Part shown: piece after piece, positions 3,601-56,839 of the stretch | How positions within the stretch are numbered: the first letter of the stretch is position 1 | Layout: each line of letters starts with the position of its first letter | Assembly (NCBI RefSeq): GCF_001305515.1 | Contig: NZ_LJYW01000001.1 | Coordinates: forward strand, 2,381,618 to 2,445,617 | Direction: 5' to 3' | Source: Prosthecodimorpha hirschii | GTDB lineage: Bacteria; Pseudomonadota; Alphaproteobacteria; Rhizobiales; Ancalomicrobiaceae | Length of the DNA: 64,000 nt | The notes under the pieces: model-generated | Seen by the model: only the letters and a program-made list of their open reading frames with translations | Told to the model about the DNA's origin: nothing | The model's database searches: none | Made by a program: the position numbers and the translations under genes

Positions 3601-6600
3601 ATGTCCCGCCCGCTGATCCTGCAACGGCGCTTCGCGCCGCTCTTTGTCTGCCAGTTCTTCTCGGCGCTGAACGACAATTTCCTGAAGAACGCGCTGGTCT
3701 TCCTGATCCTCTACCATGTCTCCGAGGCATGGTCCGGGGCCCTGGTCGCGCTGGCGGGAGCCGTGCTGGTCGCGCCCTACTTCTTCCTGTCGGGGCTCGC
3801 CGGCGAGATCGCCGACCGCTACGACAAGGCGCGCGTGGCCGAGCGGGTCAAGTTCCTGGAGATCTTCGTCGCGCTCATCGCCGTGATCGGCTTCGCGCTG
3901 CATTCGATCGTGATCCTGTTCGTGGCGCTCGGCGGCTTCGGCGTCATCGCGGCCCTGTTCGGACCGGTGAAATACGGCATCCTGCCGGATCACCTGGCGG
4001 AATCCGAACTGCCCGGCGGCAACGCGCTGATCGAGAGCGCCACCTTCATCGCCATCCTGACCGGCACGGTGATCGCCGGCGTCGCGGCCGCCGGCGGCGG
4101 CGATCCGGCGACGCTGTCCGGCCTGATGATGGTCTTCGCGCTGATCTCCTGGGGCGCCGCGCGGATGATCCCGCCGGCCGGCGAGGCCGCGCCCGGGCTC
4201 GAGATCGAGCCCAACGTGATGGTCTCGACGCGCGGCCTGATCCGCGATCTGAAGGCCGACGCCCGGCTCTGGTGGCTGGGGCTGGTCACGAGCTGGTTCT
4301 GGCTGATCGGCGCGGTGGTGCTGTCGCTGCTGCCGCCCATGGTGAAATCCGTCATCGGCGGCTCGGAAAGCGTCGTCACCGCCTTCCTGGCCATCTTCTC
4401 GATCGCGATCGCGCTCGGCTCGGGCCTCGCCTCGTTCCTGTCCAGCCAACGCATCGTGCTCCTGCCGACGCCGGTCGGCGCGGTGCTGATGGGGCTGTTT
4501 TCGCTCGATCTGGCCTTTGCGCTGTGGGGCGTCAAGGCGACCGGCGCGCCGGTCGGCGCCGTCGAGGTGTTCACCAGCGCGCGCGGCCTGCATATCGGCA
4601 TCGATCTGTTCGGCCTGGCGATCGCCGGCGGCCTGTTCATCGTGCCGTCCTTCTCGGCCCTGCAGGCCTGGGCCGGCAAGGACCGGCGCGCCCGCGTGAT
4701 CGGCGCCTCCAACGTGCTCTCCGGCGCCTTCATCGCCGTCGGCTCGATCTCGACCGCCATCCTGCTGGCGCTCGGTCTCGGCGTCGCCGGGGTCTTCGCG
4801 GTGCTCGGCCTCGCCACGCTGGCGGTCGGCGTCGTCATTTTCCGGACCCTGCCGACGAGCCCGTTCCGCGACCTGCTCTCGATCGTCTATCGCGGCATCT
4901 TCCGGCTCGAAGTACGCGGCCTGGAGAATGTCGCCAAGGCCGGGCCGCGCCGGATCATCGCGCTCAACCATGTCAGCTTCCTGGATGCCGGCCTGGCCCT
5001 GTCGCTGCTCGATCAGGAGCCGGTCTTCGCGATCGATTCCGGCATCGCGCAGCGCTGGTGGGTGAAGCCGTTCCTGAAGATCACGCGGGCCATGCCGCTC
5101 GATCCGACCAAGCCGATGCAGACCCGCACGCTGATCCATGCGGTCCGGAACGGCGAGACGCTGATCATCTTCCCCGAGGGGCGGCTGACCGTCACCGGAT
5201 CGCTGATGAAGGTCTATGACGGAGCCGGGCTGATCGCCGACAAGGCCGACGCCATGGTGGTGCCGGTGCGCATCGAGGGCCTGGAGCAGACACCGTTCAC
5301 CCGGCTGAAGCCGCACCAGATCCGCCGCCGCCTGTTCCCCAAGGTGCGCGTCACCATCCTGGAGCCGGTCAAGCTCGATGTCGATCCGGCGCTGAAGGGC
5401 AAGATGCGCCGGCTCGCCTCGGGCGCGGCGCTCTACCAGATCATGTCGGATCTGGTCTACCGGACGACCGCGATCGACCGCACCGTGTTCCGCGCGCTGG
5501 TCGATGCCGCCCGCCACGAGGGCCCGGGCCGGATCGCGCTCGACGATCCGCTGTCGGGGCCGCTTTCCTATCGCAAGTTCCTGGCCGGTGCGCGGGTGAT
5601 CGGCCAGCGCCTGATGCCGCTCGCCGCGCCCGGCGCCCATGTCGGCGTGATGCTGCCCAACGCCAATGCGGCCGCGGTGGCCACGATCGGCCTGATGTCG
5701 GCCGGCCGGGTGCCGGCAATGATCAACTTCTCGGCCGGGCCGACCAACATCCTGGCCGCCTGCCGGGCGGCCGTGATCGAGACGGTGGTGACCTCGCGCG
5801 GCTTCATCGAGAAGGCCCGCCTGCAGCCGATCGTCGATGCGCTCGACGGCCAGGGCATCCGGCTGGTCTATCTGGAGGACATCCGCGCCACCGTCGGCCT
5901 GACCGACCGGCTCGCCGCGCTGTGGCACTGGCAGACGCCGCTCGCCACGCGCGGGCCGGACGATCCGGCCGCGATCCTGTTCACCTCCGGCTCGGAGGGC
6001 ACGCCGAAGGGCGTGGTGCTGTCCAGCCGCAACATGCTGGCGAATGCCGCCCAGGCGGCGGCGCGGATCGATTTCGGACGCACCGACAAGGTCTTCAACG
6101 TCCTGCCGCTGTTCCATTCCTTCGGCCTGACGGTCGGCCTGATCCTGCCGCTGGTCTCCGGCGTGCCGGTCTATCTCTATCCCTCGCCGCTGCACTACCG
6201 GATCGTGCCGGAGCTGGTCTACGGCTCCAACGCGACCATCTTCTTCGGCACCGACACTTTCCTGACCGGCTATGCGCGCTCCGCGCACCCCTACGACTTC
6301 CGCTCGCTGCGCTACGTCGTCGCCGGCGCCGAGCCGGTCAAGGAGACGACGCGGCGGGTCTGGATGGAGCGCTTCGGGCTGCGCATCCTGGAGGGCTACG
6401 GCGTCACCGAGGCGGCGCCGGTGGTCGCCATCAACACGCCGATGTTCAACCGCTTCGGCACGGTCGGCCGGCTGCTGCCGGGGCTGCGGCACAAGCTGGA
6501 GCCGGTGCCGGGCGTGACCGAGGGCGGGCGGCTGATGCTGCGCGGGCCGAACATCATGCTCGGCTACCTGCGCGCCGAGGCGCCGGGCGTGCTCGAACCG

Positions 6601-46583: not shown

Positions 46584-47353
46584 CGGTGCATTTCATCGGC
46601 GCCGGGCCGGGCGCCCCGGACCTGATCACCCTGCGCGGCCGCGACCTGATCGCCGCCTCGCCGGTCTGCCTCTATGCCGGCTCGCTGGTGCCGGCGGCGC
46701 TGCTCGGCCATTGCCCGCCGGGTGCCCGCATCGTCGATACCGCGCCGCTGTCGCTCGACGAGATCGAGGCCGAATTCGTCCGCGCCGCCGCGGCCGGCCA
46801 GGATGTCGCGCGGCTGCATTCCGGCGACCTGTCGGTCTGGAGCGCGATGGGCGAGCAGATCCGCCGGCTCGACCGGCTCGGCATTGCCTACACGGTGACG
46901 CCCGGCGTGCCGGCCTTCGCGGCCGCCGCCGCGGCGCTGAAGCGCGAACTGACGCTGCCCGAGGTCGGCCAGTCGCTGGTGCTGACCCGCACGCCCGGCC
47001 GTGCCTCCTCGATGCCGCCCGGCGAGACGCTGGCCGGTTTCGCCGCGACCGGGGCGACGCTGGCGGTGCATCTCTCGATCCACGCGCTCGCCGAGGTGGT
47101 CGACAGCCTCGTACCGCATTACGGCCCCGACTGCCCGGTGGCGATCGTCTACCGCGCCTCCTGGCCGGACGAACGCGTGCTGGAAGGCACGCTCGCCAGC
47201 ATCGTCGCGACGGTCGCCGCCGACCCGATCGAGCGGACCGCGCTGATCCTGGTCGGGCCGGTGCTCGGGAAATCAGATTTCCGCGAGAGCGCCCTCTACG
47301 ACCCGGGCTACCAGCGCCGCTACCGCGGCCGCGGCGGACCCGGCGAGGGGTGA
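46580..47353 (+). CDS. cobM: precorrin-4 C11-methyltransferase
   Basis: [20 protein letters not shown] tetrapyrrole methylase. Confidence 0.9.
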
Positions 47354-47369
47354 GCCGCCGGAGGAGGCG

Positions 47370-47447
47370 GTCGACGGTCGACGGTCGGCGGTCGGCGGTC
47401 GGCGGTCGGCGGTCGGCGGTCGGCGGTCGGCGGTCGGCAAAGCCTGA
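47370..47447. repeat. heptanucleotide microsatellite (CGGTCGR)x11
   Basis: Direct reading: cggtcga cggtcga cggtcgg x9 immediately after cobM stop. Confidence 0.9.
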
Positions 47448-47604
47448 CGGACGATCGGGCTTATACGTCCATATAAAAGACGATCCCCACATCTCGGATT
47501 TCGCTTGAGGTCCGCAGGCCGACAGCGGTCCCGCCATCGATCACGAATTCGTTTCTTTCATGATTTCAGTACCTTGAAAAATTCGCATCGGCACCGATCC
47601 GATC

Positions 47605-47620
47605 TGGCACGCGGCTCGCA
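47605..47620 (+). promoter_or_regulatory. sigma54 (RpoN)-type -24/-12 promoter candidate upstream of rsr
   Basis: TGGCACGcggcTCGCA matches TGGCACG-N4-TTGCW with one mismatch; 37 bp upstream of rsr ATG; GAAGGAG RBS at 47643. Confidence 0.5.
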
Positions 47621-47656
47621 GTAGAGGGGGCATGACAGACCGAAGGAGATCGTGTC

Positions 47657-49213
47657 ATGGCCAACAAGTCCCTGTTCGCATCCTATATCGGGAAGCTGCT
47701 CCCGAAGGCGAATGCCAAGAATCGGCACGGGGCGCCGGCCTATGAGCTGTCGCCGCGCCACCGCCTCGCCCAGCTCGCCGCCACCGGCACGCTGAACGCG
47801 ACCTTCTATGCGGATGCCAAGGAGCAGCTCGACGCGATCCTGGCGCTCGCCCGCGAGGTCGACGCGACCTTCATCGCCAAGACGGCGGTCTATGCCCGCC
47901 GCAAGGGGGCGATGAAGGACATGCCGGCGCTCCTGGTCGCGCTCCTGTCGACGATGGCGACCGACCTGTTCGCGCCGGCCTTCGTCCGCACGATCGACAA
48001 CGGCCGCATGCTGCGCACCTTCGTGCAGATCATGCGGTCCGGGGCGGTCGGGCGGAAGTCGCTCGGCACGCGGCCGAAGCGGATGGTCCAGGCCTGGCTC
48101 GAACAGGCCTCCGAGGCCGAGTTGATGCGTGCCGCGGTCGGTGCGGATCCGTCGCTCGCCGACGTCGTCAAGATGGTGCATCCGCGGCCGGCCGATGCCG
48201 GACGGCGCGCCTTCTACGCCTGGCTGATCGGCAAGCCCTATGACGTTGCGGCCCTGCCGCCGCTCGTCACCGCCTTCGAGGCCTTCAAGCGCGATCCCTC
48301 GCTCGAAGTCCCGGAGGTGCCGTTCCAGATGCTGACCTCGATGCCGCTGACCGCGGCGCATTGGGCGGCGATCGCGGAGCGCGGGGGCTGGCAGATGCTG
48401 CGCATGAACATCGCCACCTTCGCGCGCCACGGCGTGTTCGAACGGCCCGGCATGGTCGAGCGGATCGCCCGCCGGCTCGCCGATCCGGCCGAAATCCGCC
48501 GGGCGCGGGCGCTGCCCTACCAGCTCATGGCGGCGCACGCCATGGTGGCCGGGACGGCGCCGGAGCCGATCGTGGCGGCGCTGCAGGACGCGCTGGAGAT
48601 CGCCCTCGCCAACGTGCCGAAGGTCAAGGGGCGCGTGGTCGTCTGCCCGGACGTGTCCGGATCGATGCGCTCCCCGGTGACCGGCTATCGTCGCGGCTCG
48701 ACCACGGCGGTGCGCTGCGTCGACGTGGCGGCGCTGGTGGCGGCGGCCTTCCTGCGCGCCAACCCGGACACGGAGGTGCTGCCGTTCGAGAACGACGTGA
48801 TCAAGCTCCGGCTCGATCCGCGCGACACGGTGACCACCAACGCGGCCAAGCTGGCGGCGATCGGCGGCGGCGGGACCAACTGCTCGGCGCCTCTGGAAAT
48901 GCTCGTCAAGCGGCATGCCAGGGTCGATCTGGTGGTGTTCGTCTCGGACAACGAGTCCTGGGTCGATGCCGCCGAGGCGCGCGGCTCGACGGCGCTGATG
49001 CAGGCCTGGACCCGGCTCAAGTCCTACAACAAGGACGCCAAGCTGGTGTGCATCGACCTGCAGCCCAACGCCACCACGCAGGCCGTCGATCGGCCGGACA
49101 TCCTCAATGTCGGGGGCTTCTCCGACGCGGTGTTCGAAACGATCGGCGCCTTCATGGAGGGCCGCTCCGCCGCCGACCACTGGGTCCGCGAGATCGAGGC
49201 GACCAAGCTCTGA
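47657..49213 (+). CDS. rsr: Ro60 ribonucleoprotein orthologue Rsr (TROVE domain + C-terminal vWA/MIDAS)
   Basis: 518 aa; TROVE-like N-terminal region and vWA motif VVCPDVSGSM...GGGTNCSAP, matching the bacterial Ro60 domain architecture. Confidence 0.8.
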   Translation: MANKSLFASYIGKLLPKANAKNRHGAPAYELSPRHRLAQLAATGTLNATFYADAKEQLDAILALAREVDATFIAKTAVYARRKGAMKDMPALLVALLSTMATDLFAPAFVRTIDNGRMLRTFVQIMRSGAVGRKSLGTRPKRMVQAWLEQASEAELMRAAVGADPSLADVVKMVHPRPADAGRRAFYAWLIGKPYDVAALPPLVTAFEAFKRDPSLEVPEVPFQMLTSMPLTAAHWAAIAERGGWQMLRMNIATFARHGVFERPGMVERIARRLADPAEIRRARALPYQLMAAHAMVAGTAPEPIVAALQDALEIALANVPKVKGRVVVCPDVSGSMRSPVTGYRRGSTTAVRCVDVAALVAAAFLRANPDTEVLPFENDVIKLRLDPRDTVTTNAAKLAAIGGGGTNCSAPLEMLVKRHARVDLVVFVSDNESWVDAAEARGSTALMQAWTRLKSYNKDAKLVCIDLQPNATTQAVDRPDILNVGGFSDAVFETIGAFMEGRSAADHWVREIEATKL

Positions 49214-49214
49214 A

Positions 49215-49376
49215 CCGGCCGGCCGATCCCGATCGGCCGGCCCACCGAACGACACCGCCGGCATCCGCCGGCCGGCCGGTCCCGATCGGCCGGACCACCC
49301 AAAGACGCCGCCGGCATCCGCCGGCCGGCCGATCCTGATCGGCCGGACCACAGAACGATACCGCCGGCATCCGCCG
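49215..49376 (+). repeat. three tandem ~53-bp repeats each with two hairpins (CCGGCCGATC-cc-GATCGGCCGG and GCCGGC-atcc-GCCGGC)
   Basis: Direct reading immediately after rsr stop; units at ~49215, 49268, 49321. Confidence 0.85.
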
Positions 49377-49450
49377 GCTGGGCCGACCGCCCGGCATCGC
49401 CCGGCCGGTCAGGCCATCGACAAGCCCCTGCCGGGTCCGCCCGGCAGGGG

Positions 49451-49528
49451 GGACGGCCGGGGGGAATGCTTCCGGGGACTCCATCGCTTCTCACGATCCA
49501 AAGTCCCAGGGTTTCGTCTCGTCCCCCC
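49451..49528 (+). ncRNA. short Y-RNA-like module 1 (G6-AAUGC ... GGGACU hairpin ... CUCGU-C6)
   Basis: GAATGC 49464-49469, GACTCCATC 49477-49485, hairpin GGGACT/AGTCCC, CTCGT 49518-49522, C6 49523-49528 pairing with G6 49459-49464. Confidence 0.5.
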
Positions 49529-49759
49529 GACCCGCTCTTTCCGGGGCCCTGCCGCCGGGGATCCGCGACGATCCCGGCGGCCGCGCTCCGAGCCGCCCGG
49601 CCGACGACAGTCGGCCGAACGATCATAACTTGCTGACGCCCGTCGGCCGACCGAACCGAACGTGCCGGTATCCGCCGGCCGATTGAAGCGGACCGGTCGG
49701 CAGCGACCGGCCGACCGTCAACCCATCCCTGCCGGGTCCGCCCGGCAGAACCGAAAGCC

Positions 49760-49827
49760 GGGGGGAATGCCTCCGGGGACTCCATCGTTTGTGACGACCC
49801 TGGTCCCCGGTTTCATCTCGTCCCCCC
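49760..49827 (+). ncRNA. short Y-RNA-like module 2
   Basis: Same architecture: G6 49760-65, GAATGC 49765-70, GGGGAC 49775-80 / GTCCCC 49804-09, CTCGT 49817-21, C6 49822-27; embedded in ~210-bp tandem unit. Confidence 0.5.
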
Positions 49828-49971
49828 GACCCGTCCGTCCCGGGTCCCGCCGCGCGCGGTCCTCGGGTGTCCCCGGGGGCGGCACCCCAACCAACCGAGC
49901 GACCGGCCGGCAGCGACCGGTCGGCCGTCAACCCATCCCTGCCGGGTCCGCCCGGCAAAACCGAAAAGGCC

Positions 49972-50038
49972 GGGGGGAATGCCTCCGGGGACTCCATCAC
50001 TCCCATGACCCAGGTCCCCGGAACAAACTCGTCCTCCC
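49972..50038 (+). ncRNA. short Y-RNA-like module 3
   Basis: G6 49972-77, GAATGC 49977-82, GGGGAC/GTCCCC hairpin, CTCGT 50028-32, CCTCCC 50033-38. Confidence 0.5.
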
Positions 50039-50169
50039 GGCTCGCTCTTCCGCCAGCCTCGCGTCCCCCGGCACCCGGATCTCCCGATCCCGGTGCCGGG
50101 GGCGGCGCCGATCAGCCAATGCGAAGCCGTGCCGCCACGTCCGGGCCTCGTGCCCGGGTGCGACGGCTC

Positions 50170-50220
50170 GTGGTTCGATCGAGCCGGATGGCACCCATCC
50201 GGCTCGCGAATCCGAACCAC
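50170..50220 (+). ncRNA. long interrupted stem-loop (8 bp + internal loop + 11 bp, loop CAC)
   Basis: GTGGTTCG-atc-GAGCCGGATGG-cac-CCATCCGGCTC-gcgaat-CGAACCAC. Confidence 0.5.
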
Positions 50221-50247
50221 CAACTCTTTGATGGCGTGGTCAATTCG

Positions 50248-50280
50248 ATCTGACATATGCGGGACGCACATGTCCGATTT
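50248..50280 (+). terminator. candidate rho-independent terminator within the RNA array
   Basis: ACATATGCG-gga-CGCACATGT stem (one mismatch) followed by CCGATTTTG. Confidence 0.4.
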
Positions 50281-50301
50281 TGACCACCAAGGCGGCCCGA
50301 A

Positions 50302-50381
50302 CCGGGCGGAGGGAATGCGGCATGGGACTCCATTCTTTGGGTGAACGACGGTCCCGCGCCTTGACTCGTCCCTCCGACCGG
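50302..50381 (+). ncRNA. short Y-RNA-like module 4
   Basis: terminal stem CCGGGCGGAGG/CCTCCGACCGG (one mismatch), GAATGC 50313-18, GGGAC...GTCCC hairpin, CTCGT 50365-69. Confidence 0.5.
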
Positions 50382-50396
50382 TTCGGACTGCTGTCC

Positions 50397-50530
50397 GGCC
50401 GAGACGAATGCCGAAGGAACTCCATCCAACGTGAATGGCGCGGGTTCAAATCCCGCCGGACCGGCAACGGGCCGTAGCTCAGCGGATAGAGCGTCATGTG
50501 CGATTCCTTCAAAGCCTCGTCGTCTCGGCC
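50397..50530 (+). ncRNA. YrlA-like Y RNA with circularly permuted tRNA-like domain (module 5)
   Basis: 10-bp terminal stem GGCCGAGACG/CGTCTCGGCC and second helix GAAGGAA/TTCCTTC flank internal loop AATGCC / AAAGCCTCGT. The interior holds a T-arm GCGGG-TTCAAAT-CCCGC (50440-56), an acceptor-like stem CGGACCG/CGGGCCG closed by a GCAA tetraloop, and a D-arm TA-GCTC-AGCGGATA-GAGC (50475-92). No anticodon arm; T5 tract follows at 50534-38. Confidence 0.65.
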
Positions 50531-50561
50531 ACCTTTTTCTCGAAACACGCGGCGCTCGGAA

Positions 50562-50729
50562 GGCCGCGGCGAATGCAGGCGGGACTCCATCGGTAAGCCC
50601 CAGGGCGAGAGGTTCGAATCCTCACGCCGGCTGCCGGCAGCACGGTTCGATCGGGCCACCAGGCCCGACCGGCACCGCAATGCTCTCGGCCGGCCGACGT
50701 TAACCCCGCCGCCTCTCGTCGCCGCGACC
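50562..50729 (+). ncRNA. divergent Y-RNA-like module 6 (two T-loop-like motifs, no canonical D-arm)
   Basis: terminal stem GGCCGCGGCG/CGCCGCGACC (one mismatch), GAATGC 50571-76, GGTTCGAATCC at 50611-21 and GGTTCGATC at 50644-52, CTCGT 50715-19. Confidence 0.45.
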
Positions 50730-50766
50730 TCCACCGCGCCGATCCGCAGCCCTATTCCGGCCGCAA

Positions 50767-50929
50767 GGCCGTGACGAATGCCGACGAAACTCCATCATTG
50801 TGCTGACCAGGTCGCGGGTTCGACTCCCGCCGGGTCCACCCTCGGGTGGCCCGTAGCTCAGCGGTAGAGCAGGGGCCGACGGCTCTCCGGAGCCCGAAGC
50901 CACGTTTCGTCCCCCTCGTCGTCACGGCC
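50767..50929 (+). ncRNA. YrlA-like Y RNA with circularly permuted tRNA-like domain (module 7)
   Basis: 10-bp terminal stem GGCCGTGACG/CGTCACGGCC, helix GACGAAA/TTTCGTC, internal loop AATGCC / CCCCTCGT; T-arm GCGGG-TTCGACT-CCCGC (50814-30), acceptor-like stem CGGGTCCACC/GGTGGCCCG closed by CTCG loop, D-arm TA-GCTC-AGCGGTA-GAGC (50854-70). Confidence 0.65.
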
Positions 50930-51159
50930 TCGCCGCCGGAATTGGGAGACCGTGCACTGCCCATTCTATTGTCCCCGCTATTGTTATTGTTAAGTCCACC
51001 ACGCGATATAATACCATTTCAGTCTGCTGGATGCTGTAGCCTAAGTAAGCACTCCGATCATATAAGCCAGACAATTTACTCGTTTACGGACGCAACATAG
51101 TTTGAAATGCGATTCCCGGCTATTCTCGTGAACTCAAAAGAATCAGCGAGGCCCGTCCG

Positions 51160-52398
51160 ATGAAACTAAGTAAAACCGAGATCGGAGAGAAATGGATAAG
51201 GCAATTCGCTATATGCGACCAACCCACGGCGGCCACTATGCTTGACGCGCTTATGTTATTAAATGAAGATCAGGTGTCCATCGCAATTAGGAGCACTCTC
51301 GACAGAATATGTAGAGGTTATCGCCATCGGAATAAGCGAATTGCCCTCTATGCAGAGCGAGAGTTTCAAGAGTCAGAAATTTTTCCTTCCATCCTCACGC
51401 CCGATCGCTACGGAGTACTTCGGCGGCGCGCTGTCGGATCGACAGGACCTTCAGCTGTTAAGCCGTTGCGCAATAGTCCTCGAGTCGGCAGCGAGGGGTT
51501 TATTGCTTTTCTAGCTTCTCAGCAGAAGGATGCATGGCCGAAAATTTTCAAAAACCATCCAGGTCCGGATCGCCTGCGCGCAAAATCGGCGCCGGCAGGC
51601 GAAATTATTATTCTCACGGATTTTATAGGTTCTGGAAATCGCATTCGCTCGATGCTTGATAAATTCTGGTCCGTCCCTAGTATCAAATCTTGGGTCTCGC
51701 GAAAATTAATCACTTTTCGAGTAGTTTCAGCGGCAGCAACAGATTCAGGTTTGAAAAATGTTCGACATCATAGACTAAGACCGGAAGTCATCAGTGAGTG
51801 GATCGCCCCAGTAGTTTATTCTTCTAGTTCACAAAATGTCAAGATCGAATGGTGTCAATTAATTGAAAACTACGGACCCCCGAACGGGCGCGGTTGTGGC
51901 AGATATGGTTTCGGTGGGGAAGCAGCTCTAATAGCATTCAGTTATCGCATTCCAAATAATACTCCTAACATTCTCCACCAAAGCGAAGGCGCATGGCACG
52001 CACTTTACGAGGGGCCCGCACCTACGGCACTATCTGCATTGTTTGGCATCCGCCCAATGTCACAGATCTTACAACTTGCCGCGTCAGCTAATGGAATTAA
52101 ATTGGAACCTTCGTTACTCGAATACGAAAAAAATATGATAATTATCTTAAGTCTTTTGCGCGGACGAATGTACACTGGATCAGAGATAGAATTAGCTGAG
52201 AAATGCGGAATTCCGGTTCCCATCATATTTGATATACTACGCGAAGCCTCGAAGAGAGGATTTATTACGAGCAATGGACGATTAACCGACGACGGCTATA
52301 AGTTTCTAAGGGCCGGCACCATCTGCGACAGGAAAAAACCTATCGTTGCAACTAGGCAAGAATCATATTATCCAAAATCGCTGAGGGTCCCACGATAG
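51160..52398 (+). CDS. retron-associated candidate effector: PRTase-like motif protein with C-terminal winged-helix-like region
   Basis: 412 aa, AT-rich codon usage; IIILTDFIGSGNRI resembles type I phosphoribosyltransferase PRPP-binding loop (hhhhxDhhxxGxx); directly upstream of retron ncRNA/RT, stop TAG embedded in TAGC next to a1. Confidence 0.5.
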   Translation: MKLSKTEIGEKWIRQFAICDQPTAATMLDALMLLNEDQVSIAIRSTLDRICRGYRHRNKRIALYAEREFQESEIFPSILTPDRYGVLRRRAVGSTGPSAVKPLRNSPRVGSEGFIAFLASQQKDAWPKIFKNHPGPDRLRAKSAPAGEIIILTDFIGSGNRIRSMLDKFWSVPSIKSWVSRKLITFRVVSAAATDSGLKNVRHHRLRPEVISEWIAPVVYSSSSQNVKIEWCQLIENYGPPNGRGCGRYGFGGEAALIAFSYRIPNNTPNILHQSEGAWHALYEGPAPTALSALFGIRPMSQILQLAASANGIKLEPSLLEYEKNMIIILSLLRGRMYTGSEIELAEKCGIPVPIIFDILREASKRGFITSNGRLTDDGYKFLRAGTICDRKKPIVATRQESYYPKSLRVPR

Positions 52399-52624
52399 CA
52401 TCTAGACTATGTCATTCGAAAGAATGGCCGTAATTGTGGATACTAATCCACTGTTGTGGGGAATGGAGTTTTCCATTGCCGTTGAAAGAGCACTCGAAAG
52501 CAGGTCCACGCCAGATCGTCCATCATGGCCCTTCGGGCCACCCCCTCGGAATGGCTCGGTTTGATGAACGATCCGGCGCGACTGGGCTGCGCTAAAGTAG
52601 ATGTCACACCCGTGGGACCCTCAG
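52381..52624 (+). ncRNA. retron non-coding RNA (msr-msd) bounded by 14-bp a1/a2 inverted repeats
   Basis: a1 CTGAGGGTCCCACG (52381-94) is exact reverse complement of a2 CGTGGGACCCTCAG (52611-24); TAGC immediately 3' of a1; internal hairpins GTGGAT-acta-ATCCAC, GGAATGGA-gttt-TCCATTgCC, GGCCC-ttc-GGGCC; a2 overlaps first codons of RT. Confidence 0.7.
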
Positions 52625-53755
52625 ACCTTCATATCAGGCGCCCGCAGTTTCGGTATCAGCGCGACAACCATCAACGCCTGCATTGCAACAGCAAATGCAA
52701 TAAAGAGAGTCCACCCCGACCTGCCGGTCATCTTTACGATCGAGCACCTTGCGCATTTAGTTGACGTTAACTCAAGTTTCCTGCAAGAAGTTGCCAATCG
52801 GAAGGTCGATGCATATCGTGTTTTCAGGGTAAAGAAGCGCGGCGTTTCCAATCTTGTGCCCACCCCTTCAAGGCGATACCGAACTATATGCGTACCAGAA
52901 CCGAATCTTATGAGGGTTCAGCGCTGGATAGCGCAAAATATTCTTCAAACAACGTCATCGCATGACGTAAGTTTTGCATTTATCAGGAATCGTGACATCA
53001 CAGATTCAGCGAAGCGCCACACTAATTCAAAGTGGCTAATCAAAATGGATGTGCGGCATTTTTTTGAGTCCATCTCTGAATCGGCAGTTTATCGCGTTTT
53101 TAGGTCTTTTGGGTACGGCGCGCTGCTATCTTTCCAAATGGCACGTATCTGTACACGACTACCCCGCTACAAAGGACGTGATGCTCCGCGGCTTCTCAGC
53201 CGAAGCGGCAAAGTACCATATCGTTCATATCCAATGGGGCACTTGCCACAAGGTGCACCGTCAAGTCCGATGCTTGCAAATCGTGCGGTTGAAGCACTCG
53301 ATTGCAGGCTCCAACGGATAGCACTTGGCGTAGGTTGGACCTACACTAGGTATGCAGATGATTTAGCATTTTCACGCACAACCACCGGAACACGCCACGA
53401 AGCGATGAGGCTGGTCAAACTTGTCGAGTACTCTTTGCGACATCACGGATTGGTGGCGCATCGCCAGAAGACCAGTATATCCCCTCCCGGTGGCAGAAAA
53501 ATTCTCCTAGGTATGCTAGTTGACACAGGTGAACCAAAACTCACTAAGGCGTTTCGTAATAACATCGAGACGCATCTCTATGCCCTTTTGCACAAAGATA
53601 TCGGCGCCGAACGGCATCGTGAGCATCGAGGTTTCTCATCGCTAATTGGAATGCGACGACATATATTAGGGCTGATCGCATACGCCCATCAAGTTAATAG
53701 TAAATACGCCTCTAAGCTTTACAAAAAATTCAATTCCGTTAACTGGATGCTATAG
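52601..53755 (+). CDS. retron-type reverse transcriptase
   Basis: 384 aa. Motifs: YRVFRVKKRG...RTICVPEPNLMRVQRWIAQNIL (RT0-1), LIKMDVRHFFESI (RT2), LPQGAPSSPMLANRAVEALD (RT4), YTRYADDLAFS (YADD, RT5), RKILLGMLVD-TG (retron VTG-region analogue). Start may be downstream of annotated ATG because it overlaps a2. Confidence 0.85.
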   Translation: MSHPWDPQTFISGARSFGISATTINACIATANAIKRVHPDLPVIFTIEHLAHLVDVNSSFLQEVANRKVDAYRVFRVKKRGVSNLVPTPSRRYRTICVPEPNLMRVQRWIAQNILQTTSSHDVSFAFIRNRDITDSAKRHTNSKWLIKMDVRHFFESISESAVYRVFRSFGYGALLSFQMARICTRLPRYKGRDAPRLLSRSGKVPYRSYPMGHLPQGAPSSPMLANRAVEALDCRLQRIALGVGWTYTRYADDLAFSRTTTGTRHEAMRLVKLVEYSLRHHGLVAHRQKTSISPPGGRKILLGMLVDTGEPKLTKAFRNNIETHLYALLHKDIGAERHREHRGFSSLIGMRRHILGLIAYAHQVNSKYASKLYKKFNSVNWML

Positions 53756-53978
53756 TAAATTAATGTTTTATTTTCAAATTGCACTAAGTGAATAATATAT
53801 AGTGAGAATCTGGGGTAAGAATTTTGATTCTTGAATGAATTCGCATCTACGTAAAAGATGCCCCACCCCTACGCCTTTCCCCTCATCTCCCCCGTTGACA
53901 CCCGTCCGCCGCCATCCTAACCTCCTTTCAAATAACAAAACGTCGTTTCATATAATGAAATGACCGGGACGGAAACAG

Positions 53979-54779
53979 ATGACGACCGAGGCGGACGACG
54001 CGTCGGGCAAGCTCGCGGGGGGGACCAGCACGCTGGATCTCGCGCTTCGGGTGCTCGACTTTCTGGTCGGCGAGAGCCGGCCCCAGGCGCTCGCGCAGAT
54101 CGCGGCGGCGCTCGGGGCGTCGAAGTCGACCGTCTATCGCCATCTGGTCACGCTCGGCCGGCACGGGCTGGTGCGCCAGGACCCGCAGACCGACCGCTAC
54201 GAGCCGGCCGTCAAGCTGGTCGTCTGGGGCGAGGCCGTCCGGGCGCGCTTCGACGTGATGACGGCGGCGCGCGACGTGATGGTGCGGCTGCGCGACGAGA
54301 CCGCCCAGGCGGTCACGCTGTGCGGTCCCATGGACGGCGGCGGGGTGGTGGTGCTGGAACTGATCCAGGGCCGCACCGTGATCGAGTTCGGCACCCGACC
54401 GGGCACCCGGCTCGACTATCACGCCTCCGCGCATGGCCGCGTCTGGCTCGCCTTCGGGGCCGCCGCGCGGCGCGAGGCGGCGCTCGCCGGCCCGCTGCGC
54501 CAGTGGACGCAGCATACCCTCACCGACCCGGCCGCGCTCCGGCGCGAGATCGAGGCGATCCGGGCGCGCGGCTGGGCCACCGCCCCCGACGAGATCGTCA
54601 TTGCCGTCAACGCCCTCGCCGCGCCGGTCTTCGACCATCGCGGCGAGCAGGTCGGCTCGCTCGCCATTGCCGGGCCGACGCAATTCATTCCCTCACCCCC
54701 CACCGAGGCCCAGATCCGGGCCGTCCTCGCCGCCGCACAGGACATCTCCCGGCAGCTGGGCTGGAGCGCGAAGCCATGA
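53979..54779 (+). CDS. IclR-family transcriptional regulator
   Basis: N-terminal HTH LAQIAAALGASKSTVYRHL plus IclR effector domain. Confidence 0.9.
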   Translation: MTTEADDASGKLAGGTSTLDLALRVLDFLVGESRPQALAQIAAALGASKSTVYRHLVTLGRHGLVRQDPQTDRYEPAVKLVVWGEAVRARFDVMTAARDVMVRLRDETAQAVTLCGPMDGGGVVVLELIQGRTVIEFGTRPGTRLDYHASAHGRVWLAFGAAARREAALAGPLRQWTQHTLTDPAALRREIEAIRARGWATAPDEIVIAVNALAAPVFDHRGEQVGSLAIAGPTQFIPSPPTEAQIRAVLAAAQDISRQLGWSAKP

Positions 54780-56839
54780 CCTATTCCCTGGCCGTCGATA
54801 TCGGCGGCACCTTCACCGATATCGTGCTCAGGAAGTCCGACGGCTCGCTCACCGTCGACAAGACGCTGACCACCCATGACGACCTGCTGCGCGGCTTCTT
54901 CGGCGGCGTGCATGCGGTGCTGGCCAAGGCCGGCATCGAGGCCCGCGACGTGAACGGCGTCGTCGTGCACGCCACCACGGTGGTCACCAATGCGCTGATC
55001 GAGCGCAAGGGACCGCCGACCGCGCTGGTCGTCACCGAGGGCTTCCGCGATGTGCTCGTGATCCGCAACGAGCACCGCTACGATATGTACGATCCGCAGA
55101 TCGAATTCCCCGAGCCGCTGGTGCCCGAGCACCTGACCTTCGGGCTCGCCGAGCGCACGCTCGCCGACGGCACGGTGACGCGCGTGCCGGACGACGCCGA
55201 GATCGAGGCCCTGGCGGCGGCGATCCGCGCGTCGGGCGCGCAGTCGGTCGCGATCTGCTTCCTCAATGCCTTCGCCAATCCGGCCAACGAGACCAAGGTC
55301 GCCGGCGCGCTCACCCGGCTGCTGCAGGATGTCTTCGTCTGCACCTCGTCCGACGTGGCGCCGCAGATCCGCGAATATCCGCGCGCCTCGACGACCACCG
55401 TCAACGCCTATGCGATGCCGATCTCGCTGCCGTATCTGAGGCGGCTAACCACCCGCCTCGACCAGGAGGGTATCGGCCAGACGCCGCTGATCATGCTCTC
55501 CTCCGGCGGGGTCGTCGGCGCGGAGACGGCCGGGCGCAATCCGGTGCGCATGATCGAGAGCGGCCCGGCCGCCGGCGCGCTCGCCGCCTGCCACTATGCC
55601 GAGATCCTCGGCATCGACCGGCTGATGTCCTTCGACATGGGCGGCACCACCGCCAAGGCCTGCCTGATCGAGAACCGCACCCCGCTGGTCACCGGCCTGT
55701 TCGAGGTCGACCGCCGCTATCGCTTCAAGGAAGGCAGCGGCATCCCGGTCACGGTGCCGTCGATCGACCTGATCGAGATCGGCGCCGGCGGCGGCTCGAT
55801 CGCCCGCATCGACGATCTCGGGCTCCTGAAGGTCGGCCCGGACAGCGCCGGATCCGATCCGGGACCGGCCTGCTACGGCCGCGGCGGGCAGGGCGCCACC
55901 GTCACCGACGCCGACCTGATGCTCGGCCTGATCGACGCCGACAACTTCCTCGGCGGCGAGATGAAACTCGACCGCGCCGCCACCGAAGCCGCGCTCACCC
56001 GCCTCGGCAGCGCGCTCGGCGCCTCGCCGGTGCAGGCCGCGCGCGGCATCTACCGGGTGGTCACCGAGGCGATGGCCAATGCGGCACGCAGCCACGCCAC
56101 CGACCGCGGCGTCGACTATCGCGGCCTGCCGCTGTTCGCCTTCGGCGGCGCCGGCCCGCTGCATGCCTGCGGGGTCGCCGAACTGCTGCAGAGCTCGTCC
56201 GTGATCGTGCCGCCGCAATCGAGCGTGCTGTCGGCCTTCGGCACGCTGGTCACGCCGGTCCGGCTCGATCTGGTCCGCTCCGATCTGGTCCGCCTCGATG
56301 CGGTCGATTGGGCGCGCGTCGAGCGCATCCTCGGCGACCTGGAGCGCGAGGGCCGCGCGGCGCTGCGCGAGGCCGGCTGCACGGATGCGGAAATGCGCAT
56401 CCGGATCGGCGCCGACATGCGCTATTCCGGCCAGCAGAACGAGGTCCCGGTGACCTTCGCCGCGGATCCGCGCCGGACCCGCGACGTGGCCGCCATCGCG
56501 GCGATCTTCGCCGAGGATTACCGCGTCCTCTACGGCGTCAATCCCTCGCATGTGCCGATGGAGATCGTCACCTGGCGCGTGGTCGTCGAGGGGCCGCCGA
56601 TCCGCTTCCACGCCGCCGGCCGCCCGGCCGCCGCGGCCGGCGAGGCGCGCCGCGTCCGCCCGGTCCATGCCTGGCAGGACGACCAGCCGGTCGCCGTCTG
56701 GAACCGGGCCGACCTCGCCGTCGGCCAGACCATCCAAGGCCCGGCGATCATCGAGGAGCGCGAGACCACCACGGCCATCCCGCCGGGCTGGAGCGCCACC
56801 ATCGACCCCGTCGGCTGCATCGTCGCCACCAAGGCCTGA
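54776..56839 (+). CDS. hyuA: hydantoinase/oxoprolinase A subunit (HyuA family)
   Basis: LAVDIGGTFTD N-terminal ASKHA motif; 687 aa; ATGA overlap with iclR. Confidence 0.88.
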   Translation: MTYSLAVDIGGTFTDIVLRKSDGSLTVDKTLTTHDDLLRGFFGGVHAVLAKAGIEARDVNGVVVHATTVVTNALIERKGPPTALVVTEGFRDVLVIRNEHRYDMYDPQIEFPEPLVPEHLTFGLAERTLADGTVTRVPDDAEIEALAAAIRASGAQSVAICFLNAFANPANETKVAGALTRLLQDVFVCTSSDVAPQIREYPRASTTTVNAYAMPISLPYLRRLTTRLDQEGIGQTPLIMLSSGGVVGAETAGRNPVRMIESGPAAGALAACHYAEILGIDRLMSFDMGGTTAKACLIENRTPLVTGLFEVDRRYRFKEGSGIPVTVPSIDLIEIGAGGGSIARIDDLGLLKVGPDSAGSDPGPACYGRGGQGATVTDADLMLGLIDADNFLGGEMKLDRAATEAALTRLGSALGASPVQAARGIYRVVTEAMANAARSHATDRGVDYRGLPLFAFGGAGPLHACGVAELLQSSSVIVPPQSSVLSAFGTLVTPVRLDLVRSDLVRLDAVDWARVERILGDLEREGRAALREAGCTDAEMRIRIGADMRYSGQQNEVPVTFAADPRRTRDVAAIAAIFAEDYRVLYGVNPSHVPMEIVTWRVVVEGPPIRFHAAGRPAAAAGEARRVRPVHAWQDDQPVAVWNRADLAVGQTIQGPAIIEERETTTAIPPGWSATIDPVGCIVATKA

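Follow-up and report, generated by a model that had tools for sequence, protein, structure and literature searches.

The window analyzed here is a stretch of 64,000 nucleotides from the alphaproteobacterium Prosthecomicrobium (Prosthecodimorpha) hirschii (contig NZ_LJYW01000001.1, positions 2,381,618 to 2,445,617), and all coordinates count from its first letter. Between positions 51160 and 53755 it carries the three components of a retron, all of them on the plus strand. The effector gene (51160-52398) codes for a protein of 412 amino acids (aa) in which a phosphoribosyltransferase (PRTase)-like domain is fused to a winged helix at the C-terminus, followed by a conserved tail. It is followed by a non-coding RNA (ncRNA; msr-msd) with a minimal extent, from 5' arm to 3' arm, of 52381-52624, overlapping the 3' end of the effector gene and the 5' end of the reverse transcriptase (RT) gene. 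The RT gene itself (52601-53755) codes for 384 aa, with the catalytic YADD encoded at 53351-53362. A sequence-only reading, made from the letters and their open reading frames, had proposed a complete retron in a low-GC islet; both reading frames were found where it had placed them, on the same strand, and the presence of effector, ncRNA and RT is borne out by PADLOC, Pfam, motifs and a covarying ncRNA. The islet is equally real (47.9% GC for the retron against 70-72% in the flanks), and the host is alphaproteobacterial as had been surmised. The three components probably form a single transcript. That we are dealing with an intact tripartite retron of type III-A is very probable, and the most likely subtype is III-A3; the locus can be filed under type III-A with confidence and under III-A3 with moderate confidence.

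The RT was matched by PADLOC to the model RT_III-A (PDLC02944) with an E-value of 5.8e-162 and 539 bits. The best PADLOC RT model outside III-A reaches 212 bits, and the top matches are all retron RTs. Pfam recognizes RVT_1 in the protein, its NCBI record is WP_083463522.1 (reverse transcriptase family protein), and its solved relatives in the PDB are all retron RTs, the Ec86 RT being the best (E 2e-30). The NCBIfam models for group II intron RTs, Drt2, Drt3a and Drt4 give 12-48 bits, to be compared with cut-offs of 200-450. On these scores the RT is of the retron type, as had been claimed from the letters, and not an abortive infection (Abi), diversity-generating retroelement or group II enzyme. 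The motifs quoted in support of that claim are all present at their places: RTICVPEPNLMRVQRWI at aa 94-110, which corresponds to the RxIxxPxxxLxxxQxxI region of the retron lineage, LPQGAPSSP at aa 215-223, YADD at aa 251-254, in agreement with the retron YxDD, and LLGMLV at aa 302-307.

The effector is matched end to end by the PADLOC model PRTase_III-A (PDLC02933; E 4e-102), so that PADLOC calls both proteins as III-A components. Pfam finds the pair PRTase-CE (PF24390) and "wHTH-PRTase associated" (PF24409; wHTH, winged helix-turn-helix), and the structure model resembles PRTases for uracil and orotate as well as winged helices of the MarR type. The domain pair and the structure model thus agree with the PRTase loop motif and winged helix that had been read from the sequence, and a PRTase fold is present. 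The two objections anticipated in the sequence-only reading for these proteins, an RT of another lineage and a missing PRTase fold, do not apply, since the RT lies inside the retron lineage and the fold is there. The NCBI record is WP_420848227.1 (phosphoribosyltransferase-like protein). More than 160 homologues of the effector were retrieved and almost all carry both Pfam domains; a search of viral contigs yielded no relative of it, so that there is no sign of a phage-borne cassette.

Three signatures of the effector were compared in 18 homologues. The phosphoribosyl pyrophosphate (PRPP)-binding loop IIILTDFIGSGNR, located by motif search at aa 149-161 (51604-51642), contains IIILTDFIGSG at aa 149-159, and its residues D154, G157 and G159 are unchanging. 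The same is true for G250, P265, N266 and P269 of the retron-PRTase signature Gx14PNNxP, here GFGGEAALIAFSYRIPNNTP at aa 250-269 (51907-51966), and for P405, L408, R409 and P411 of the C-terminal peptide YYPKSLRVPR at aa 403-412 (52366-52395). To judge from the sequence, the catalytic motifs of both proteins, YADD in the RT and the PRPP loop in the PRTase, are intact. It should be noted that the record WP_152982001.1 (386 aa) begins the effector at Met27, the part concerned being window positions 51160-51237. We take the 412-aa start to be correct, because homologues conserve the first 26 residues (LSxTxxGxxWLxQF), which are modelled as confident helices, and because a Shine-Dalgarno (SD)-like GAGG lies 8-11 nt upstream of the ATG at 51160.

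The fusion of PRTase and winged helix had been regarded as a departure from the known retron systems, and this part of the sequence-only reading has to be given up. Type III retrons are defined by a PRTase-like protein, and subtypes III-A3, A4 and A5 have the wHTH fused to its C-terminus (Mestre 2020, PMC7736814), so that the fusion is the textbook form; it has its own pair of Pfam domains, and one retron of this kind, Retron-Eco11 of type III-A3, has been characterised (Garcia-Rodriguez et al., NAR 2025, PMC12746101).

Between the two genes lies the ncRNA. Its outer stem consists of a 5' arm CTGAGGGTCCCACG at 52381-52394 (IRa2 in the Eco11 nomenclature) and a 3' arm CGTGGGACCCTCAG at 52611-52624 (IRa1), each of 14 nt, 100% complementary and 216 nt apart, just as first reported. 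Shuffling 52300-52700 2000 times never produced an inverted repeat longer than 13 nt at a spacing of 100-350 nt (0/2000 reached 14); the repeat is not due to chance. Both arms are dual-coding: the 5' arm lies in the LRVPR codons at the end of the effector, and the 3' arm within RT codons 4-8 (PWDPQ). An inner stem, found in the minimum free energy fold, pairs GCATCTA at 52398-52404 with TAGATGT at 52598-52604, and the short bulge between the two stems holds the effector stop codon. The 3' strand of the inner stem includes the RT start codon (ATG at 52601-52603), and because this codon is paired, folding of the ncRNA could limit translation of the RT. Folding of the RNA 52375-52630, a check proposed for this region, gives -112 kcal/mol (z = -6.8), a value that 0/200 shuffles equalled.

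The structure was then compared among relatives. We fetched 28 alphaproteobacterial genomic loci, 27 of which were usable, and the covariation set of 28 sequences was analyzed with RNAalifold and with an explicit count of pairs. The intergenic region is alignable throughout the homologous loci. In the alignment 44 pairs are formed with 92.7% of cells paired, and 27 of the pairs are compensatory, with both sides changed; no shuffle out of 500 reached the observed values, and sliding the partner columns left 39-49% of cells paired. The inverted repeat, whose lack of conservation had been named as a refuting condition, is kept and covaries in the 27 loci, 6 of its 14 outer-stem pairs being compensatory, and CATCTA / TAGATG of the inner stem is almost invariant. 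The msr hairpins lie at 52411-52428 (alignment columns 42-47 with 54-59; all 6 pairs compensatory), at 52430-52457 (columns 65-74 with 79-88; 9/10) and at 52459-52480 (columns 92-100 with 105-113; 6/8). After the third hairpin follows a conserved single-stranded TTGAAAGAGC at 52482-52491. The predicted msd template, about 100 nt, would extend over 52495-52597, both ends being estimates, with a long hairpin at 52509-52578 built on the inverted repeat I1 (17-nt arms at 52509-25 and 52562-78). Its cDNA strand folds as one long hairpin of -25 kcal/mol (z -2.9), and a long msd hairpin is found at the equivalent place in nearly every homologue, its sequence differing and its shape being kept. The comparison indicates that the fold, which is made up of outer stem, inner stem, three msr hairpins and the long msd hairpin, is under selection. 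A search of 47000-55000 with Rfam (evalue mode) found no retron or msr family for the ncRNA and gave matches only to the Y-RNA-like modules upstream.

The branching G of the msr had been placed in a TAGC just 3' of the first arm. This tetranucleotide is present at 52396-52399; its TAG, however, is the effector gene's stop codon, and its position is not conserved in homologues which have a C-terminal extension. A better candidate is G52405, the first unpaired G beyond the inner stem; it belongs to a conserved TCTAG and, counting from the stem start, is position 25. This G is invariant and recurs at the corresponding site of the homologous loci (in L007-L009 it is shifted by 3 nt in the alignment), and an enterobacterial III-A locus, on a Shigella plasmid described below, likewise has ACTAG after its stem. 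We therefore regard G52405 as more likely to be the branching G than G52398 of the TAGC.

The gene order found here is also that of the relatives. In 22 of the 27 usable loci an intact YADD RT of 378-395 aa follows about 205 nt after the effector; the remaining five comprise three with a frameshifted RT, one truncated by the end of the contig and one without RT. Taken together, the reading frames and the alignment indicate that the three components in P. hirschii are all present and intact, in an order which is kept in its alphaproteobacterial relatives. The three frameshifted RTs are all in loci from metagenome-assembled genomes (L013, L018 and L020). The locus without RT (L029, 7233-7480) has retained its effector together with the ncRNA's 5' part, and its 3' arm is degenerate. 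These four loci may be decaying retrons or assembly errors.

The enterobacterial member is located on the Shigella sonnei plasmid NZ_OP038295.1 (12480-15136), and PDLC02933 and PDLC02944 are its best models too. The plasmid is a conjugative IncFIA/FIC resistance plasmid on which the retron adjoins IS26 and mph(A)-mrx(A), and the two genes are annotated merely as "hypothetical protein" and "reverse transcriptase family protein". By blastn, the element was found in 1 of 5426 complete E. coli genomes, as a near-identical chromosomal copy. That this Shigella/E. coli locus should be Eco11 itself was considered and rejected, its PRPP loop being different.

If the P. hirschii retron works as described for its relatives, the following steps can be proposed. 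By homology with Eco11 and Ec86, the RT would prime on the 2'-OH of the unpaired G52405 and copy the template from about 52597 back to about 52495. The product would be a branched multicopy single-stranded DNA (msDNA) of about 100 nt with a DNA hairpin of about 70 nt. A complex of RT, msDNA and effector might then hold the PRTase inactive, until the ATPase activity of a phage helicase of the UvsW/D10 type, acting on the msDNA, activates it. The activated PRTase would consume PRPP, the nucleotide supply would fail, and the infected cell would abort the infection. Production of msDNA has been demonstrated in other III-A retrons (PMC12746101, PMC12548924). Abortive infection triggered by a helicase and accompanied by PRPP depletion is known from no retrons other than Eco11 and five of its relatives.

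Several points weigh against the III-A3 interpretation or against the mechanism attached to it. The msDNA, the branch point, the defence function, the trigger and the PRPP depletion are all carried over from Eco11, and for Eco11 the lethal step is itself not fully settled, because its effector alone is non-toxic and PRPP drops by only about 50% (PMC12746101). Subtype A3 is characterised by an RT of clade 9, the clade of Ec86, and by an effector in cluster 67_3; the choice of A3 over A4 and A5 rests here on motifs and on the best-scoring PADLOC models. The effector is 27% and the RT 35% identical to its counterpart in the Shigella/E. coli III-A member, and with the alphaproteobacterial msr covariance model R1 the Shigella locus gives no significant match, not even when the filters are off. 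Finally, a scan of 50900-54000 for promoter and terminator consensus sequences gave sites no commoner than in shuffles and none that was convincing.

The low identities and the failure of the msr model on the enterobacterial locus can be cited in favour of another assignment, either to type III-A4/A5 (effector cluster 67_2a/b) or to a sister group in the Alphaproteobacteria that would have an ncRNA family of its own and perhaps a different trigger. A4 and A5 likewise have the PRTase fused to the wHTH (PMC7736814). The YYPxxLR tail is also found in the divergent enterobacterial locus, so it may not be specific for cluster 67_3; with a member of 27% identity carrying the tail too, its specificity is uncertain. 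Against this, PDLC02933 and PDLC02944 are by far the best models, as they are for the enterobacterial locus, the next III-A models scoring 260-280 bits lower; the PRPP loop agrees with that of Eco11 in 9 of 13 residues and is closer to it than the Shigella loop is; and the protein length of 412 versus 413 aa and the positions of the motifs match Eco11. We consider an assignment to A4/A5 or to a sister group unlikely, though it is the most serious of the alternatives.

The retron could also be a recently acquired cassette which is inactive or silenced, an operon of 48% GC left unexpressed in a host of 71% GC or one that yields no msDNA. The extreme mismatch in composition fits such a history, as do the absence upstream of the effector of any promoter-like site beyond chance and the RTs frameshifted or missing in the four loci mentioned above. 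It is opposed by the full length of both reading frames, in which every catalytic and signature residue is kept, by the perfect stem and by the SD-like GAGG in front of the effector, and we regard a dead cassette as quite improbable. That the locus is no retron at all, and consists of a PRTase toxin of the kind that also occurs in ShosTA and PsyrTA (bioRxiv 10.1101/2025.09.30.679545) beside a defence RT of the Abi/DRT type, the inverted repeat being a terminator or attenuator, is already contradicted by the distance of the arms, which enclose covarying hairpins, by the absence of a T-run terminator, by the low scores of the Drt2, Drt3a, Drt4 and group II intron models and by the uniformly retron nature of the top PADLOC matches, and can hardly be believed.

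The type III-A retron is the sole content of a low-GC segment of 2.9 kb (50948-53860; 47% GC), delimited by the breaks in homology with sister contigs at about 50940-50947 on the left and at about 53861-53876 on the right. Upstream lies a gene for Ro60/Rsr (47657-49213; Pfam vWA_Ro60 and TROVE). Behind it, on the same strand, come seven Y-RNA-like modules in tandem; each has GAATGC...CTCCAT, and all score under the Rfam gathering thresholds. Four are YrlB-like, starting at 49454, 49756, 49969 and 50303, and three are YrlA-like with a tRNA-like part, at 50401-50529, about 50557-50700 and 50767-50929. The array, which with the Ro60/Rsr gene occupies 47657-50929, is unusually large. The stretch between the end of rsr and the first module (49215-49390) contains repeats of about 53 nt in tandem (units of CCGGCATCCGCCGGCCGG...GATCGGCCGG), seen as blastn self-matches at 53-nt offsets, and their copy number varies between strains. 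Inside the second YrlA-like module (50648-50703, minus strand) Rfam gives a weak match to c4-a1b1, the target of the phage P1/P7 C4 antisense RNA, with 25.3 bits against a gathering threshold of 46.7 (E 0.001-0.004); this is probably a chance match to the hairpins of the module. Downstream of the segment are a gene for an IclR regulator and hydantoinase genes.

The site was compared in six contigs (L031-L036) which have an identical IclR protein and flanks 96-99% identical. At the same place an NCBI genome (L031) has a type XI RT-protease retron (3917-5500, minus strand; PADLOC E 9e-180). An HNH endonuclease is found in L032 and L035, a DUF6883 protein of 514 aa with a 201-aa reading frame in L034, and reading frames of 157, 262 and 59 aa without family match in L033 and L036. 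In all there are five different low-GC cargos, two of them different types of retron, and those of the other contigs range from 41 to 61% GC. The right junction, at about 53861-53876, is common to all cargos. The left junction is either after the last YrlA-like module (about 50940-47) or within it (about 50838); in L033, L034 and L036 homology ends in the tRNA-like part of the Y-RNA, after the T-arm and an acceptor-like GGGTCCA, GGGTTCGA(C/A)TCCCGCCGGGTCCA. What lies between the last YrlA-like module and iclR thus varies from strain to strain; this gap is a defence hotspot, with the retron as one of several interchangeable cargos.

No integrase was found in the segment, and no cargo at the site has an integrase or a transposase. 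A search of the whole window for tRNA and tmRNA genes gave none, and the att-like direct repeats around the islet amount to one weak pair (25 nt at 76% identity), taken as chance. Neither a target duplication nor an empty site was found, two scans of metagenomes with the flank sequences giving zero matches and a search by the Rsr protein yielding short contigs only. It has been considered that the gap might be a dedicated defence-cassette hotspot of P. hirschii in which the tRNA-like module of the Y-RNA serves as recombination target, as tRNA genes do. If this were true, the DUF6883 protein with its 201-aa companion and the reading frames of 157, 262 and 59 aa would be new anti-phage systems; we find this extended interpretation distinctly doubtful. 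A functional link between the retron and the Y-RNAs was rejected, because a search of the 27 homologous retron loci found no Y-RNA modules; the adjacency is specific to the P. hirschii genome.

With this locus, a retron type which has one mechanistically studied member, in E. coli, gains an intact example from the Alphaproteobacteria whose ncRNA structure has been derived by comparison. The alignment of 28 sequences provides an msr-msd model, supported by covariation, for a clade of alphaproteobacteria that is uncharacterised, with a specific prediction of the branching G, G52405. Use in retron-based editors is possible, since III-A3 retrons are reported to work in genome editing, and the hotspot supplies a few candidate new defence genes through guilt of location. 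The general understanding of retrons is unaffected by the locus. It is a standard retron type recognised by PADLOC and has a characterised relative in Retron-Eco11, and for these reasons we conclude that it adds an ordinary member to a described family. A published experimental retron census does not mention type III-A.

The comparison with Retron-Eco11 is a comparison with its published description, that is with motifs, positions and architecture. The order effector-ncRNA-RT on one strand is common to both, and in both the ncRNA overlaps the 3' end of the effector gene and the 5' end of the RT gene (PMC12746101). In the Eco11 ncRNA the outer arm measures 14 bp and the inner arm 11 bp, two As of the stop codon are bulged, and the branching G is G28 (PMC12746101), to be set beside position 25 here; in P. 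hirschii the outer arm is again 14 bp, the stop codon is at the bulge, and an inner arm and an unpaired G follow. The inner arm, however, is 7 bp here and not 11, and the bulge consists of AUA opposite 6 nt, where Eco11 has its two As. The msr of Eco11 has three hairpins, as here, and its msDNA of 101 nt with the 69-nt hairpin DSLb (PMC12746101) resembles the predicted msDNA of about 100 nt with a hairpin of about 70 nt. The Eco11 effector has 413 aa, a PRPP loop VVILTDTIGSGNQ at aa 148-160, the signature Gx14PNNxP and a C-terminal peptide YYPxxLRxx at aa 405-413 (PMC12746101). The P. hirschii effector, with 412 aa and its loop starting at aa 149, shares Gx14PNNxP, the C-terminal wHTH and the YYPxxLR tail, and its RT is likewise related to Ec86. 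The two retrons differ also in host, which here is alphaproteobacterial.

The other known systems are further away. Retrons of type III-A1/A2 (PMC7736814; including Retron-Bpu1, Retron-Ppe1 and Sda1, PMC12548924) combine, as here, an RT with a PRTase-like effector and a winged-helix module; there, however, the winged helix is a separate downstream gene, whereas here it is fused. The PADLOC models of the A1/A2 form (267-271 positions) match only aa 142-282 of the effector, with E 5e-08 and 3e-05. Ec86/Eco1, of type II-A3, provides the closest solved RT, and its effector also ends in a wHTH with a terminal peptide which contacts the msDNA. The enzyme domain of that effector is nucleoside-deoxyribosyltransferase-like and not a PRTase, and it is triggered when phage Dcm methylates the msDNA. 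ShosTA and PsyrTA, like the P. hirschii retron, have defence-associated effectors of the type I PRTase fold which act on nucleotide metabolism, but they have neither RT nor msDNA and are controlled by a protein antitoxin.

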